64,000 bases of DNA from Minutocellus sp. GHC0000111 (lineage: Eukaryota): assembly GCA_977018835.1 (NCBI GenBank), contig OZ361259.1:4030001-4094000 (forward strand). Reading direction: 5' to 3'. This document shows positions 56,476-64,000 of the stretch, piece after piece. How positions within the stretch are numbered: the stretch's first letter is position 1; every line of letters begins with the position of its first letter. Position numbers and translations under genes: made by a program. The notes under the pieces were generated by a model. That model had not been told where the DNA came from. It was given only the letters and a program-made list of their open reading frames with translations, and searched no databases.

Positions 56476-57651
56476 CCGTGCAATACGCCTGCAATACTCC
56501 ACCCAGAGTGCGGCGGTGCTGAAGTGAGTGCGGCGAGAGAGTTGAAAATGAGCCAAACTGCGGGCTACGTACGGCTCCGTACATCTACGTACGTACGGAC
56601 ACAATCTACGACGCGATGTACGTACGGACCAGACCGAATTTTGCCACCTCATCGTCATTTCTGGCCGCTCGAGTTCGGCCATCGCATCGGCCATACATAC
56701 TCTAGTATTGGTACCAGATATCAGGAGCTGAAGTGCCAGCAGCCATGTCTCGCCGCAGATCACATCTTGCCGTTGGTGCCATTCTCTTCGGCTCCCAGGT
56801 GGAGGGATTTGCCCCTCGTCTGGTCGGTAACAGCGGCGCATCTTTACGTCCCGCAGGCAGGTCGTGCTGCCCTGCTGGCCACCAAAATTCCGATGGACCC
56901 GAACCACCCAATAGGCTCTGCATTGGTGGTACTAGTAGCAGCTGTTCGAACAGATTCGATTCACGACTTTACGTCGGGAGCAGCATTGACCCTTCCGAGG
57001 ATCAGGAACAAACATTACTGAAAATAGATGGCACCGATGGCAGTAGTAGTAGTAGTAGTAGTGAAAATGCCGACCTTCCGACGGATTCCAATCCCGACCA
57101 GAACCTTCCCCTCAGCGCCTTGTGGTCCATGCTAACCGGGACGGGCGGCGGGCTGCCTCTTCAAGTTGACGACACGAATGTGCTGCTCTATGACGTTTTT
57201 CTTTTGGTGAACCTGTCGGCGTGCATATCCTTTTGGGTTGTCCACAGGATGAATTTCATGTACATCGCCGAGTCACTGAACGAAGGCGCATTGCTGTGCA
57301 TATGTTGGATACTGGCTGGCCTGGCCAACGGTGCCTTTCTGTATTCGGCGGTTGACGGGCACTGGGACCCCAGCGGCAAGGATGCCGATAAGGGTGGGCC
57401 GAAAGCTGCGGGATTGCTGGGTTTGTCGACGTTTATTGGTACATCCTCCCTCCGAATTATCATTGCAAAAAATTTGAATGGATGAACTAATGTTATGTTT
57501 TGCTGCTACGAACGTATGATTGTTACAGTTTCAGTAATCTAGTTCCGAGCCTTTCCTACTACTAGTAGTGACCTAATTTCCTGGGTCTGCTGCGTAGCTC
57601 AAGTCACGGCAGTCTTCCTCTGGTTCCTTTAGCGAGGCACCTGCAGCAGAC

Positions 57652-58830
57652 CTATGGCTGAATTGGCTGGGGCCAGCGGTACTGCGGGTGTCGAACAATG
57701 CTTTGCCAGACCTTGAGGTCATAGTAGCAGAGGTAGTCGACAAAATCTGAAAAGAGGCGAAAATGCCGACGATGGCCATTCTCATAAATGGCAATGTATG
57801 TCGGCAAACCCAAGCGTTTCACTGCTGCACCGGCCTCGGCGGCGATTCTTTTTGCACAGTCGTTCCCATATTGTTGACACTTTGCGTCTCCGTAGTATCT
57901 TCTGCGATACGGCAGCATTACATTCCAGTACTGCTCTGGCTTTCTCTCTCCTGCCGTCCCCCCAGGCGCTTCATCCCGGCGGTCTCCTCTTCCAGTAAAT
58001 GCTCCTCTTCCATTTGCTGTGCTGCGACAAGCCGAAAAGACTATGCAATTTGGTGGAATGTTCTCGTCTTCTGGGGCCATTGTTATGCTCACATCATCAA
58101 TGACTTTCCACAACCACAACGTCATGTCCCTCGCAATTTGGAACTGGGCAGCGAAACGAGACTCCATCCCTTTGAATAGCACCTTTTTCCCCTTTCGCCA
58201 ATCCTCGCCATCGTCGAGGCTGTCGAAGCCAGACATCTGGGAGTCTTCGGCATTACGGGGCCCAACAAGCCGTTGGTGATTTCTCACCCGCTCAGTGGAC
58301 ATCACTGCCAGCCTGCGGGATCGATCCTCGACAGATTTCGTGTTGTATCCCTTGCTGCTTCGGGTTATCAGCGAGCCACGGCTGCCGTAGGTTGCTACCG
58401 AGAGACGGCAAGGTTGGCCCACAATGCGATATATTTTGGCTCCTCCGGCGGGGTTCATCTCCCAAAGCCCATGAGGCATCATGGTGCTGATTGGCTTGGC
58501 GACCATCCAGCCCTGCTCAACCTCAATGAGCGAGGTGATTGTTGCGATGCATCTTTTCCCCCAGGAGTACTCTCCCACCAGTCCGTGTTTACCGGTTGCT
58601 CTCGCCTCGTACATTTTCAACGCCCCTCGGCTTACAGCAGCAACACAAGAAGGGATGGTCCCGACTGCCGATCCGTATCGCGCGAGAAACTCTCCAAAGA
58701 AACAGAATCCTCCTCCCACCTTGCGAAGGTGAGAAGCGAGAGCTGCTTTCATTGCGGTGGGGCACATGCCCGTGTGGATGTTTACTTCGTACTCTCCGTT
58801 GCAGTAGAAGGTGTAGGTCTCGGCCTGCAT
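57652..58830 (-). CDS. Element ORF2, unknown globular protein (candidate mobilisation enzyme)
   Basis: 392-aa ORF of complex composition; frame open upstream to ATG-TAA at 58959-58954; no family recognised. Confidence 0.6.
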   Translation of the reverse strand: MQAETYTFYCNGEYEVNIHTGMCPTAMKAALASHLRKVGGGFCFFGEFLARYGSAVGTIPSCVAAVSRGALKMYEARATGKHGLVGEYSWGKRCIATITSLIEVEQGWMVAKPISTMMPHGLWEMNPAGGAKIYRIVGQPCRLSVATYGSRGSLITRSSKGYNTKSVEDRSRRLAVMSTERVRNHQRLVGPRNAEDSQMSGFDSLDDGEDWRKGKKVLFKGMESRFAAQFQIARDMTLWLWKVIDDVSITMAPEDENIPPNCIVFSACRSTANGRGAFTGRGDRRDEAPGGTAGERKPEQYWNVMLPYRRRYYGDAKCQQYGNDCAKRIAAEAGAAVKRLGLPTYIAIYENGHRRHFRLFSDFVDYLCYYDLKVWQSIVRHPQYRWPQPIQP

Positions 58831-59094
58831 TAGACTCTCTCCCCGAATGTTGCCGGGCCAAAGGCCGGCAAGGTTGCACCCTCCTGGAAAGGGGGTATTG
58901 GGAGGGGCAGCGGCTGGGACTGCTGCTGCCGCGCCTCCACCTGCCGCGGGTGCTTACATAGGCCAATCGGTACAACCAAAAGGCCTATCAACAAGCTCAT
59001 TCACGATGCTCTTCTCCTAGATATTCCTCGAGCAGTCATTGCACTTGAAAGCCTTGCTCTCGATGCCAACAAGATCTACAACCAAGTGGTCTTC

Positions 59095-60735
59095 TTACTC
59101 GCTCTTCTTGGCGCACTTGTTACAAATGTATTTGCCTCCTACCACAAATTCACCTTCCTCGTAAACAGACTCATCGCAATACCCCTTTCCGCATTTTAGG
59201 CAAGTCTCGCCTTCATCTCCTCCAGGGACGATGGTCCGGCAGCAGCCACACCCGCACTTGGGGCCGGCTTTCTTCCTCATGCCGACGCCGCCACTGTTTC
59301 GCTTCTTCTTGGCCCTCTTCTTGGCACTGGGACCGCCAAAGTCTTCGCCGTCAGAGTCGTCGGATTCGAGTTTCATCTCCACATCAAGGGCCTCCTCCTC
59401 CTCCATGTCGGAACTCCACACGTCATCACCTTGCTCGGCGGTCGCCTTCCTCTTCTTGTCTCCACCGCTACCACCGCCGACGTCTCTGCCGCCACCGTCG
59501 GCCGAGTCCTTGGCCGTCTTCTTGGTCTTCTTGGCCTTGGCCGGTACGCCGCCGCCGCCGCCGGATCCCTTGACCCTCTTGGTCTTCTTGGCCGTCGTGC
59601 CGGTACCGCCGCCGTCGCCACCGCCATCGGCCGACGCCATGGGCTTCTTGGCCTTGGGCTTCTTGGCGGTACCGCCGCCACCGCCGCCGCCACTGTCGGC
59701 CGAGGCCTTGGCCTTCTTCCCCTTGGCCTTCTTCCCCTTGGCCTTCTTGGCGGTGTCAGCATCGTTGCTGCCACTGCCGCCAGCACCACCACCACCAGAG
59801 GCCCCATTGCCGAAGAGACTCACAAGGCTGCTTCCCTTGCTCTTGAGAGGCTGGACGTCGCATCGAGGAGGCCCCACCATGACGACGCCAATGCCGTCCG
59901 CGCCGCCATCAATGCCAGCAACCCCGGCCCACCCAACGTGGTTGGCAGATCCGCCGCCGACGCTCAACTTCTTTTGCTTCTGCAACGCCTCCTTCTCCTC
60001 GTCGTTGAGCGGCAGAGGGCGGATTGCCTCAAGCACAGCGCTTGCCTCAACAACAATCGATCCATTGGTCCTGTTGGAGTATGCGCTGGCGTTGCTGGAA
60101 CTTTGCTCGCCCGCTGCACGAGCAGTCATGTTGGCACCCGTACCTCTGAAATTGACCATTCCACTTTTCACCTTCTTGTCGTATCCGCTGCCGGGACCGT
60201 CGCCGTCGGACTCAAGGCACAGGATCATTCCTTCCCAGCGACCCTGCTTTAGCGCAAAAGCACGAATACGCGTGCTTTCGTCACGGTACATGCAATGAGG
60301 CAAGAGACTGCCGTGTCCCTCTCTGGCAGCCACGTCTGACAGCTCAGTGCTCCAACGGGCAGCAGCTTCCGCCGTGTAGGCAGTCGCAACAATCGCTCCC
60401 CCTCTCTTGGGGTCACGGAGAGCAAACCTGCTGGTAGCTGGAAAGGCCTCATGCCACATCCTCCTTGCCTCCTTCAAGCTGGTACCATCTGGAACCACAA
60501 TGATGGCGAGGAAGCCGCACACAATAGAATATCCTCTGTGCCTTTTAGCATCACTGAGTTTCATAGTAGCTTTGACGGACTGGCCGGTGCCTGCCTCCGG
60601 GGCCCATGCAGGATGCTTCCCCATCACTCCTTTTGGCCCTCTCAACACCTCGCCAAACCCTCCATGGTTGAGGAGGGAAAATTCCGTCCAATGTTGCACC
60701 ATGGTATTCGGTGGAGGAAAAGCAACTGTGACCAT
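59095..60735 (-). CDS. Element ORF1: unknown N-terminal domain, Lys/Gly-rich linker and C-terminal PHD-like Cys cluster
   Basis: 546 aa; KKAKG and GGGG repeats, acidic patch, NLS-like KKRAKKKR, CGCGCC..CLKC..C..CNKC. Confidence 0.65.
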   Translation of the reverse strand: MVTVAFPPPNTMVQHWTEFSLLNHGGFGEVLRGPKGVMGKHPAWAPEAGTGQSVKATMKLSDAKRHRGYSIVCGFLAIIVVPDGTSLKEARRMWHEAFPATSRFALRDPKRGGAIVATAYTAEAAARWSTELSDVAAREGHGSLLPHCMYRDESTRIRAFALKQGRWEGMILCLESDGDGPGSGYDKKVKSGMVNFRGTGANMTARAAGEQSSSNASAYSNRTNGSIVVEASAVLEAIRPLPLNDEEKEALQKQKKLSVGGGSANHVGWAGVAGIDGGADGIGVVMVGPPRCDVQPLKSKGSSLVSLFGNGASGGGGAGGSGSNDADTAKKAKGKKAKGKKAKASADSGGGGGGGTAKKPKAKKPMASADGGGDGGGTGTTAKKTKRVKGSGGGGGVPAKAKKTKKTAKDSADGGGRDVGGGSGGDKKRKATAEQGDDVWSSDMEEEEALDVEMKLESDDSDGEDFGGPSAKKRAKKKRNSGGVGMRKKAGPKCGCGCCRTIVPGGDEGETCLKCGKGYCDESVYEEGEFVVGGKYICNKCAKKSE

Positions 60736-61349
60736 TGCTGGAAATCAAAACCGATTTCAAAAAATCCAGTTTCGCTGGAAAAAAAAACAAAAAGGAGATT
60801 CATTTCTTACACCTGCAAAAGCGGCGGAGGCAGGACAAAGCCCCCGCCGCCGCTGATCTACCCCAGCGACCATCATGGTTGAGGCACAAGAGGGGAGAGA
60901 CGCATATGGCTGCGCGGGCGCGCGATGCTCTCTTGCGCCGGTGTCTCAAGGTCGGAAGACCGACGGCGCACAGACTAGCGGTAGCGGTCGCGGTTGTGCA
61001 GCATCGGCCGGTGGGTAGCGGCGGTGAGGCATTGATTCCGCTGGAAATTCTGGTGGGTCTCATTTTGATGAGTTCCTGGCGTGCCCTCCATTCGGCGTAT
61101 ACTCCAAGGTTGTGAGTTGTGGATGACATCTTTTGTACATACCGTTCATGCACATAGTACAAGTGGTGGACTCTGCAAAACAAACGCATTGCGAAGTACG
61201 TTCATTACGATAACGCTGGCTGAGATGGTTGGACTGAGCATGGCAATGTCCCAAGTAGGCTGTATAGTTAGAATAGAAGATGAGATGAAAAGTTTAGAGG
61301 CTGCGTTATGTTTTGATTTATTCGTTATTGGTACCACCTATTATGGTAT

Positions 61350-63794
61350 TTACAGTCCGTACGCCGCTAGACGAGACTCGGCCACTCCAGCAATCTTACT
61401 CGACTCCTTCTTTTTGCTGCTGGACTTGCCATCCTTGTTCTTCTTTTGGCGCCTCTTCTTCTTTGCATCGACCTTGGATTCCGAGGTTTCATCTTTGGCG
61501 TCTGCGGGGGCTGGCTTGTCCTTCTTCTTTTTATCTTTCTTTTCGGCCTTCTTCTCAGAGGCGTTCTCTTTGCCGGTGGCATCTTCCGCCTTCTCCTTCG
61601 CGGGCTCATCCACGCCAGCACCGTCTCCGCCCTTCTTCTTTTTCTTTTGACGGCGTCTCTTCTTCTTGGGCTTATCGCCTTCTCCAACCTCCTCAGTAGC
61701 AGCAGGATCTTCCGCCTGCTCGGCATCGGCCTCGGGCTCGGCCTCCAGAAGTTCCTCGTAATCATACTTGGCAATATCACGGAAGCGCTTGCGCTTCTTC
61801 GTTCCTGGAAGATATTCTTCGCCTTCGCGATAAGGTGCCATTCGCTTGAGACTAACAAATTGCTTCAACGTAGTATCCTTGGCAAATAAGATCTCCTGAG
61901 GCGTAAGACCAAAGCGATTGGCTTCGACCTTGCGATACTTGAAGCGAGTTGGCATATCGCCAATGATATCTTCGTAGTCGAGCTTGTACAGCTCATCCTC
62001 CATCTTCTCTCTCAATTTCTTTTCGATACCCGTTTCCTCCTCGAAGTCGGCAGGAGGTTCTGGGTCAAAATCCAAATCTTCGTCACCGTCATCGTCGCCA
62101 AGCTCCTCATCGCCACCTGCGTCCTCATCGTTGTATTCGTCGTACATGTCTCCAGTATCCTCGTTAATTATGTCTCCCTCTGCGCCAGTTTCGTCGCGCA
62201 TGAGGCTTTCCTTGACATCGGCATCGGTCTTCCACTCGGCATCTTCCTTATCGTAGAAATCGTCACCATATGCCTTGGACATGATGGCCTCGAACTTTTC
62301 AGGATCATAATCACCCTCCATAAGCTTCATTAGAGCAGCCTCGTCGATATCGGCATCACCCTCCTCGGCCGCACCAGCAACGTGCCAGACCTGCTTCATG
62401 CGGCCCTCCAGCTCCTCCCTTTTGGCATTTTTGAGGCGGCGAAGTCGCTCCTCCTTTGCCTTCCTCTCGGCAGCCTTCTTCTCCTTCCGAGCGAGACGCT
62501 TTTGCTTCCTCGTCTCATCCTTACGACGGAGTGTGTCAGTAGTGTGAGCACCTCCACGGGCATAGCCAACGACGCTGTAGGCGGCACCGGATTCTCCACT
62601 CTCTGCAGAGGCGGCCGCCTCCTCGAAACGGAAGTTGTACTTCGACTCGAAGGCGTCCATCTGCTCGAGCTCGTCAAGAGAGGCATCGGAATCATGACCA
62701 TCATCGTCTTTGATTTTGGAACGGTAGATACCACGCTCCTCGTCGTCATCATCATCACTATCACTTTCCTGCAGGTCCTTGTCGACCCAACGCTTATTCT
62801 TGATGAAATCGAGCAAGAATTTATCGCCATCTCCCACCTCATCACGAGGATCACTCACGGTGGCATCGCCAGTACCCAGCTTCTCGAGCTCGGATATCTC
62901 ACTCTCCACCATCCTCTGAGCACGATCGGCATCGGCCTTGGACACGGGCTTCTTCACCATCCAATTGTCTCCGTCGTCGTCGCTATCGTTGGAGTTGTCG
63001 TCATCGTCAGAATCATCCTTGGTCGACTTGAGGAAGGCGGCGCGCAATTCTCGCTGTTCATCGTCGTAAGCAAATCGAGAGGCGGGCCCATCGTCATCCT
63101 GATGACGGCGAGAGGAAGCATTGCCATCGTCGTCGCTGCCGGCGTCTTTATTGCCCTCTCCACGTTCCTCGGCGTCTATCTGCTCGAGCACCTGCTCCCT
63201 CACCACGTCCTTGTATTTCATTGGCTTATGACTCTTGCCCTTCTTTTTGCCCTCGCTGCTATCATCATCGTCGTCATCTTCCTTGAAGAATTTTGCATTC
63301 TTATCGTAAATTGACTTGTCCTTGTTCTTCAAAGCCTTGATGGTGCGGAGGATACTGAGGTCCATACCAGGTGTCATGAGCTCGCCGTCTTCGTCTTCCT
63401 CTTCGCTGCTACTATCATCCTCATCGTCGCTGTCGAGGTATTCTCCCGACTGCCGAGCGTTGAGCAACTCCTCCCGTCGCTTGCACTGATCGAATTCCCG
63501 AGCGTACTTCTTGTTCACCTTGAGGATGGACTTGGGCGCATTGGCTTGCTCTTCTTCATCAGATGAGCTGTCCTCGTCAGAGGAGTCGTCCAAGAGCTGC
63601 TGCTTCTTCTCTTGTTCCTTCTTCTCATCCTTTTTTGAAAGCGGCATGTCTTGTGCTTTTTTGCTCGTCGTCACCTTCTTCTTGGAATCGGCACGTTCGC
63701 TGCTCGAAGAGTCGCTTCTGCTTCCACTACTCGTGGTGCTAGTAGCACTGCTACTGCTACTGTCACTATCGCTGTCGCTGCTAGAGGACGACAT
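61350..63794 (-). CDS. KRI1: KRI1 ribosome biogenesis protein
   Basis: LKVNKKYA, FESKYNFRFEE, LRRKDETRK, LKNAKREE, YKLDYEDIIGDMPTRFKYRKV..FGLTPQEIL, VSLKRMAPYR. Confidence 0.95.
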   Translation of the reverse strand: MSSSSSDSDSDSSSSSATSTTSSGSRSDSSSSERADSKKKVTTSKKAQDMPLSKKDEKKEQEKKQQLLDDSSDEDSSSDEEEQANAPKSILKVNKKYAREFDQCKRREELLNARQSGEYLDSDDEDDSSSEEEDEDGELMTPGMDLSILRTIKALKNKDKSIYDKNAKFFKEDDDDDDSSEGKKKGKSHKPMKYKDVVREQVLEQIDAEERGEGNKDAGSDDDGNASSRRHQDDDGPASRFAYDDEQRELRAAFLKSTKDDSDDDDNSNDSDDDGDNWMVKKPVSKADADRAQRMVESEISELEKLGTGDATVSDPRDEVGDGDKFLLDFIKNKRWVDKDLQESDSDDDDDEERGIYRSKIKDDDGHDSDASLDELEQMDAFESKYNFRFEEAAASAESGESGAAYSVVGYARGGAHTTDTLRRKDETRKQKRLARKEKKAAERKAKEERLRRLKNAKREELEGRMKQVWHVAGAAEEGDADIDEAALMKLMEGDYDPEKFEAIMSKAYGDDFYDKEDAEWKTDADVKESLMRDETGAEGDIINEDTGDMYDEYNDEDAGGDEELGDDDGDEDLDFDPEPPADFEEETGIEKKLREKMEDELYKLDYEDIIGDMPTRFKYRKVEANRFGLTPQEILFAKDTTLKQFVSLKRMAPYREGEEYLPGTKKRKRFRDIAKYDYEELLEAEPEADAEQAEDPAATEEVGEGDKPKKKRRRQKKKKKGGDGAGVDEPAKEKAEDATGKENASEKKAEKKDKKKKDKPAPADAKDETSESKVDAKKKRRQKKNKDGKSSSKKKESSKIAGVAESRLAAYGL

Positions 63795-64000
63795 TGTTGA
63801 CTACGCCAATGGTACTCTCGATCCTTTCCGCGGCGGCGCGGAGAGCGAGAAATGAGCCCGAAATTTCATTGGCAATGGCGTGGTGACGGAAGATGGACAG
63901 ACCGTTCAGCATTTAATCGAACCTGCGCGCGCATGCGCGCAAGCCGATGAATGAAGCATTCACTGTGGTGAGAGACACTGTTGGAGAGACAATGAGCTCC

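Follow-up and report, generated by a model that had tools for sequence, protein, structure and literature searches.

Rolling-circle transposons of the Helitron2 type (HLE2) are among the closest described systems to the element reported here. In the parts of the cited papers drawn on here and below, the non-canonical Helitron2 elements FoHeli1 and FoHeli2 begin with 5' TCAG and a hairpin and finish in 3' ATTTT (PMC5148889), Helentrons end in T-runs, and HINEs carry repeats of 12-15 bp at 38-60 nt from the end (PMC4067079). Helitrons are described there as leaving their target unmodified (PMC11417382; PMC4067079), and in the portion of HELIANO Table S10 concerned, two of two diatoms have an HLE2 row and no HLE1 row (PMC11417382). 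In this study we analysed a stretch of 64,000 nt from Minutocellus sp. GHC0000111 (contig OZ361259.1, positions 4,030,001 to 4,094,000, forward strand), called the window, in which a gene for a membrane protein is split by a 3.5-kb insertion. The insertion is real, polymorphic and gene-disrupting. We tentatively read it as a non-autonomous element, copied in by a Helitron2-type rolling-circle (HUH) transposase that would be provided by another locus, and carrying two open reading frames (ORFs) as cargo; we give this reading somewhat less than an even chance.

The host reading frame starts at 56745 on the plus strand and is interrupted after ATT GC at 57466, the remainder lying about 3.5 kb further on, as a first-pass annotation made from the letters alone had described. 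The 5' part (56745..57466) encodes a diatom membrane protein outside any Pfam family; the severed 3' part (60975..61115, plus strand) comprises about 45 codons (LAVAVAVVQHRP...AYTPRL). With the 5' half as query, 230 relatives were obtained, one of them (85% identity) from Minutocellus polymorphus, and the gene belongs to a conserved diatom membrane-protein family; no match to the protein was found in Pfam or NCBIfam. A signal peptide is followed by EGFAP, which we take to be an ASAFAP-type motif, and the protein is likely targeted to the plastid. The empty site encodes RIIIALAVAVVQHRP, which is unbroken in orthologues P0006, P0008, and P0010 (three exact occurrences among the 120 listed of the 230), so the two halves are one protein. 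In all 108 scorable orthologues among those 120, 11 residues separate the anchoring R from HR. Three frame-restoring junctions had been put forward before. Neither the first, RIIIAVAVAVVQ, nor the second, longer by two residues, occurs in any of the 120 listed orthologues, and the 108 scorable ones have the length of the empty allele. The third took TC at 57460 and CTAG at 60975-60978 for Helitron ends; both belong to the host, being found in the empty allele too, and they lie on the wrong strand. An imperfect repeat rich in TACG/GTAC (56563-56630) was also noted 5' of the host gene.

Contigs from 8 of 23 listed public runs were aligned with the window (X1, X2, X5, X6, X8, X9, X10, and X14, of which X6 is an RNA run and X14 a metagenome), and only these eight serve as evidence; the best-covered runs may include the source of the window itself and are not independent. 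The empty allele, for which the first-pass annotation had proposed a search, is present in five of the eight (X1, X2, X5, X6, and X14) as a joint of 57466 to 60982 with TC between, and was not seen in X8, X9, or X10. The host gene in X14 shows 54 differences over about 750 letters. Contig depth, which is not copy number, was 141-170 in the flanks, 87-91 in the insert and 90 at the empty joint in X1, and 11-13, 7-8, and 8.5, respectively, in X5, which fits a single heterozygous copy; depth in X2 was uneven (empty joint 181, insert 222-363). A minimum of 31 letters applied to contigs that cross a junction. The filled left junction is spanned by an X8 contig (57333-57504), the X1, X2, and X5 contigs over it having 30 host letters, below that threshold, and the right end is crossed by contigs 58990-61011 in X1, X2, and X5; the insertion is therefore not a misassembly. 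These contigs dispose of both a misassembly and a syntenic gene pair, either of which had been named as fatal to the first-pass interpretation; the third such condition, halves from different proteins, does not hold either. A spliced intron was considered and ruled out, as the joint in the X6 RNA has the TC specific to the empty allele. In the filled allele the reading frame of the 5' part continues into the insert and meets a stop behind AKNLNG; this allele would yield a truncated membrane protein, with the intact allele sheltering it.

The empty-allele joint and a relative in X14 place the element at 57467..60974 (minus strand, 3508 bp). The left end is uncertain by 1 base and the right end by 1, or to 60981 if the 6-bp repeat there is counted as element. 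Compared with the empty allele, the filled allele is without TC and has 3515 additional bases terminating in a second TAGCGG. This hexamer, single in the empty allele, stands in tandem at 60976..60987 (plus strand), on one side only, at the 5' flank of the element. A coincidental match of 6-7 nt between an element end and the adjoining target would be expected in about one of 4000 cases, or more rarely. The simplest reading of the junction is an element at 57467-60974, a single T that was either lost or converted to A, and TAGCGG duplicated on the right flank only. Differences between alleles in the host coding sequence fall at third codon positions in 11 of the 11 cases tested, and 57467 is likewise a third position; a silent T-to-A change is therefore plausible and, in minus-strand terms, would put the element 5' of T. 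At the right end of the element, the X14 contig agrees with it only as far as 60975, where the contig ends or diverges; the X14 relative retains the last 21 nt (60955-60975), and its following 41 nt are unaligned.

At its 5' terminus the element has a 44-nt hairpin (60931..60974, minus strand) that starts with TC, has the first base as its foot and encloses an inner hairpin (60951-60964). Its folding gave a z score of -2.86 (1 of 200 shuffles). Folds as good were found in 13 of 1688 GC-matched 50-mers (top 0.8%), and the first base was paired in two of those. The 3' terminus (57467..57475, minus strand) reads AAATTTTT(T) and thus finishes in ATTTTT(T). The first pass had recorded this T6 and the two minus-strand ORFs, along with the lack of terminal inverted repeats (TIRs), long terminal repeats (LTRs) and long target-site duplications (TSDs), and all of this was borne out: no TIR, LTR, direct repeat or flanking TSD was detected, the best exact end-to-end matches being 6-7 nt. 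The element contains neither a hammerhead core nor an Rfam match. Its ends lie close around the gene, with 98 nt ahead of the putative ATG and 185 nt past the stop.

The gene opens with a putative first exon (60813..60876, minus strand; ATG at 60876, 21 codons) and a putative GT-AG intron of 75 nt (60738..60812, minus strand; 32% GC, 45% T, with in-frame stops and a phase that fits ORF1), for which no spliced read was seen; the intron likely connects the upstream ATG to ORF1 in frame. ORF1 (59095..60735, minus strand) has an N-terminal domain of no known family, Gly/Lys-rich repeats, an acidic tract and a C-terminal Cys-rich finger, PHD-like by eye only. It is 70% identical over 276 aa to P0002 and 41% to P0003, both fusions of ORF1-like and ORF2-like parts, and 35% to P0137, which is ORF1-like alone. 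A match of ORF1 to the MS2 coat protein, with E 0.57 against the monomer and lower values against tandem dimers only, was judged to be chance. Samples differ in the insert, a (CGC)n repeat within ORF1 (59547-59563) being one unit longer in X2. The linker (58954..59097, minus strand) is in frame with both ORFs, holds stops at 59097, 59019, and 58956, and looks like a decayed second Cys finger. An intron removing these stops was rejected: there is an in-phase donor at 59153, but the X6 RNA contig 58926-59153 is unspliced. ORF2 (57652..58953, minus strand) extends over 433 codons from stop to stop, with its first Met (58830) within the conserved core. A frameshift at 57957, raised by X5, was ruled out, as homologues terminate like the ORF2 of the window. 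RNA contigs from two studies overlap parts of the insert, with 56300-56647 empty in X6; transcription of the insert is only hinted at.

The ORF family is rare: a full hidden Markov model scan found 14 clusters in 1.84 billion, that of the window included; word-indexed searches gave three relatives. Many members are fragments, two are on megabase contigs and one comes from a diatom transcriptome. In the conserved core of ORF2 (11 aligned rows, down to 24% identity), H226 (9/9), E/D264 (10/10), D/E286, C309, Y342, W343, and D412 (11/11) and three Arg (8/8) are retained. No HUH, YxDD, HxxR, PD-(D/E)xK, GIY-YIG or Walker A motif is shared across these rows; the HUH pattern occurs in one of the 11, which is not ORF2. 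The ORF families gave nothing above cut-off in Pfam, PHROGs, NCBIfam or PADLOC, PDB sequence searches with the ORFs gave nothing significant, and an Atlas search with P0004 gave no usable match; family scans and motif checks were as blank as the first-pass annotation, which had seen no transposase, suggested. Fold searches on poor models returned common helical arrangements only, which do not demonstrate a new fold. SRA-like and PrimPol-like resemblances noted by eye found no support in the family, PDB or fold scans. In the literature searched, including passages of a diatom transposable element preprint (10.1101/2025.10.24.684338), no description of such an element or protein family was found, and word searches cannot reveal an unnamed family.

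Pieces of the element recur elsewhere. The block at 57595..57650 is common to other loci, which diverge from it directly after the ORF2 stop. Its partners, one locus in X1, X2, and X6 plus loci in X14, are without 57552-57594. Its depth in X1 is about the two-allele level, the other locus is also in the RNA run, and the differences are partly silent in one frame; this second locus may be another element or the 3' end of a host gene. Judged by the consensus of loose ends, which reach 30 nt, the 43-nt segment 57552..57594 is missing from two related loci, and by inspection it parts two arms that would close a short stem-loop there; only in these loci is a stem-loop suggested, about 80 nt from the 3' end. 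A second block, of 57 bp (58963..59019), is identical at a second locus with other flanks: its depth doubles in X1 and X2, and loose ends are seen in X2, X5, and X8. That locus has about one-allele depth, and exchange between related elements is a possible source of the identity. In X14, several diverged pieces lie along the insert at a depth of 3-50, against 367 for the host gene, as would be expected from low-frequency copies or from copies of rarer species. No second copy of the element was found within the window, and no related loci in JGI metagenomes, IMG/VR, GTDB, phages or plasmids; all 45 loci obtained by pattern matches were unrelated by tblastn.

The rolling-circle reading fits much of this. 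There is no TSD, TIR or direct repeat, the hairpin starts at a base fixed by the empty allele, the likely intron is retained, the blocks 58963-59019 and 57595-57650 are shared or captured, and the X14 relative kept the end. The termini look like those of FoHeli1/2 and, in the T-run, like those of Helentrons, HLE2 is on record for both HELIANO diatoms, and the plausible silent T-to-A change points the same way. On this reading, the 5' hairpin would be bound by a RepHel protein, which would nick, displace one strand to the T-run end and join it 5' of the target T; the one-sided 6-bp duplication and the base that was lost or changed would have been left by repair of the 5' joint. Several observations weigh against it. 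The subterminal inverted repeats are weak: the 10/12 match between the 5' hairpin (60954-60965) and 57607-57618, inside the shared block, lies 140 nt from the 3' end and was equalled by 36 of 300 random segments, and within the last 64 nt no match exceeds 7/12. No stem-loop was found near the 3' end (z 0.2). The target, itself modified, is neither TT nor T-rich. Recognition of the terminal pattern came post hoc, from the only copy with both ends in view, and ORF2 retains enzyme-like invariant residues, unusual for idle cargo. Neither a RepHel partner nor a second full copy with both ends was seen, the whole host genome not being among the data, and for that reason we infer the mechanism only. 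The element is not filed as an HLE2 member, since the subterminal repeats, 3' stem-loop and unmodified TT target of that group were not found. The first-pass annotation had suggested single-strand or rolling-circle chemistry for a mobile element of no assignable class. The link to rolling-circle transposition stands as the leading reading, with other ends than the host sequence then proposed and with a one-sided 6-bp duplication that had been missed. The insertion is likewise genuine and polymorphic; a new class is possible and not the likeliest explanation.

An unlikely alternative is capture during break repair. End joining would then have filled a double-strand break with a gene-sized piece of a cassette, mobile or duplicated, and dedicated transposition would have played no part. 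The loss of one or two target bases and the local tandem duplication suit end joining, and by depth the element is single copy in X1 and X5. Tandem duplications by classical non-homologous end joining and templated insertions by polymerase theta-mediated end joining have been described (PMC9779921). Patching leaves unexplained, however, why a hairpin begins at base 1, why a relative retains the terminal sequence and why the ends frame the gene so closely.

Somewhat less probable is retroposition in trans, in which a reverse transcriptase (RT) of the non-LTR or Penelope-like kind, primed at the left junction, would have copied the transcript into DNA at the target. The right junction resembles the 5' junctions of R2, for which target deletions and duplications of upstream target are described (PMC2718515). 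The likely intron is kept, and the block after the ORF2 stop is common to other loci, much as introns persist in Penelope-like elements and non-autonomous Chlamys have 3' ends in common with their partners (PMC8557442). Against this, the element has no poly(A), pseudo-LTR, TSD, hammerhead core or Rfam match. Its internal T-runs also speak against an RNA polymerase III transcript stopping at T6.

We consider it about as doubtful that the element is an autonomous member of a new class, its ORF2, fused to ORF1 in some relatives, cutting and joining the hairpin and T-run ends, with the present copy perhaps decayed. ORF2 is open over its full length, its family keeps invariant residues down to 24% identity, and that family is patchy and often fragmented. 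Yet no known catalytic motif is shared, three stops part ORF1 from ORF2, the conserved core already begins ahead of the first Met, and the two members on megabase contigs may be ordinary genes; nothing shows that ORF1 or ORF2 mobilises the element. With similar reserve, ORF2, with its invariant His, Cys, three acids and Tyr-Trp pair, could be an enzyme not yet described that cuts and joins DNA. The element would then found a new class of diatom DNA transposon, marked by a hairpin at the 5' end, a T-run at the 3' end and target duplication on one side only. That the element derives, as a non-autonomous form, from a Replitron or from a Crypton-type element with a tyrosine recombinase is very improbable: both are without TIRs and can be without TSDs, Cryptons are present in a diatom (PMC3212892), and 7 nt adjoining the right end match the target, but such derivatives need short direct repeats at both ends (PMC3212892; PMC9977147; PMC10288648), here both copies are on one side, and Replitrons were not detected in diatoms in the part of the survey concerned (PMC10288648).

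If ORF2 does mobilise the element, it would represent a new transposase class; returning to the rolling-circle reading, this is likely a new form of cargo element with an uncharacterised protein family. The family is conserved like an enzyme and matches nothing, which makes cargo versus mobilising protein a testable question. An element of this type would escape annotators based on TIRs, TSDs or CTRR ends. The locus also offers a naturally occurring heterozygous knockout, both of whose alleles are recorded, of a diatom membrane protein that is conserved and unstudied. Its neighbours are a KRI1-like ribosome biogenesis gene (61350-63800, minus strand), which is ordinary; coding stretches for ankyrin repeats and a MYND finger (54324-56340, minus strand), likely exons of one gene; and two divergently oriented coiled-coil ORFs (50938-52764, minus strand; 53088-54311, plus strand), paralogues by eye.

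Among known systems, transposons of the DDE type differ in their TIRs and flanking TSD, neither of which was found. The Crypton feature of direct repeats of 4-6 bp at both termini is absent; for the tyrosine recombinase domain there is no Pfam match and HxxR is not shared, the structure models being too poor for exclusion by fold. Neither the Rep HUH motif nor the short direct terminal repeats of Replitrons were found. R2-type 5' junctions and non-autonomous Penelope-like elements are alike in the small target loss, one-sided duplication, retained intron and shared 3' block, whereas here no RT domain (Pfam and motif check of the family rows), poly(A), pseudo-LTR or ribozyme was detected. Canonical Helitrons (HLE1) share the 5' TC (minus strand), a hairpin near an end and gene cargo; the element differs in having no CTRR at its minus-strand 3' end, the plus-strand CTAG being host, and in not lying between A and T. 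As far as described in the relevant parts of PMC4067079, HINE/DINE-1 elements are alike in asymmetric ends, a T-run terminus, no TSD, terminal blocks shared among otherwise different loci and occasional captured genes. In contrast to them, the element has no pair of 12-15 bp subterminal inverted repeats at the expected sites, lacks a palindrome at 8-35 nt from its 3' end and a TT target, and it carries a nearly whole gene cassette. Of the HLE2 features as a group, subterminal inverted repeats of 12-16 bp (3' copy 38-60 nt from the end), a 3' stem-loop 8-35 nt from the end and an unmodified TT or T-rich target were not found; the 5' TC terminal hairpin, the 3' ATTTT/T-run and the lack of a flanking TSD are present. 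Compared with FoHeli1 and FoHeli2 of Fusarium oxysporum, as described in part of PMC5148889, the element is without RepHel, its inverted repeat is weak and lies at 140 nt from the end where theirs lies at 38-51, its target is not TNAT|A and its flank is modified, but it shares with them the 5' TC and terminal hairpin, the 3' ATTTT, the absence of a TSD and a similar size range.

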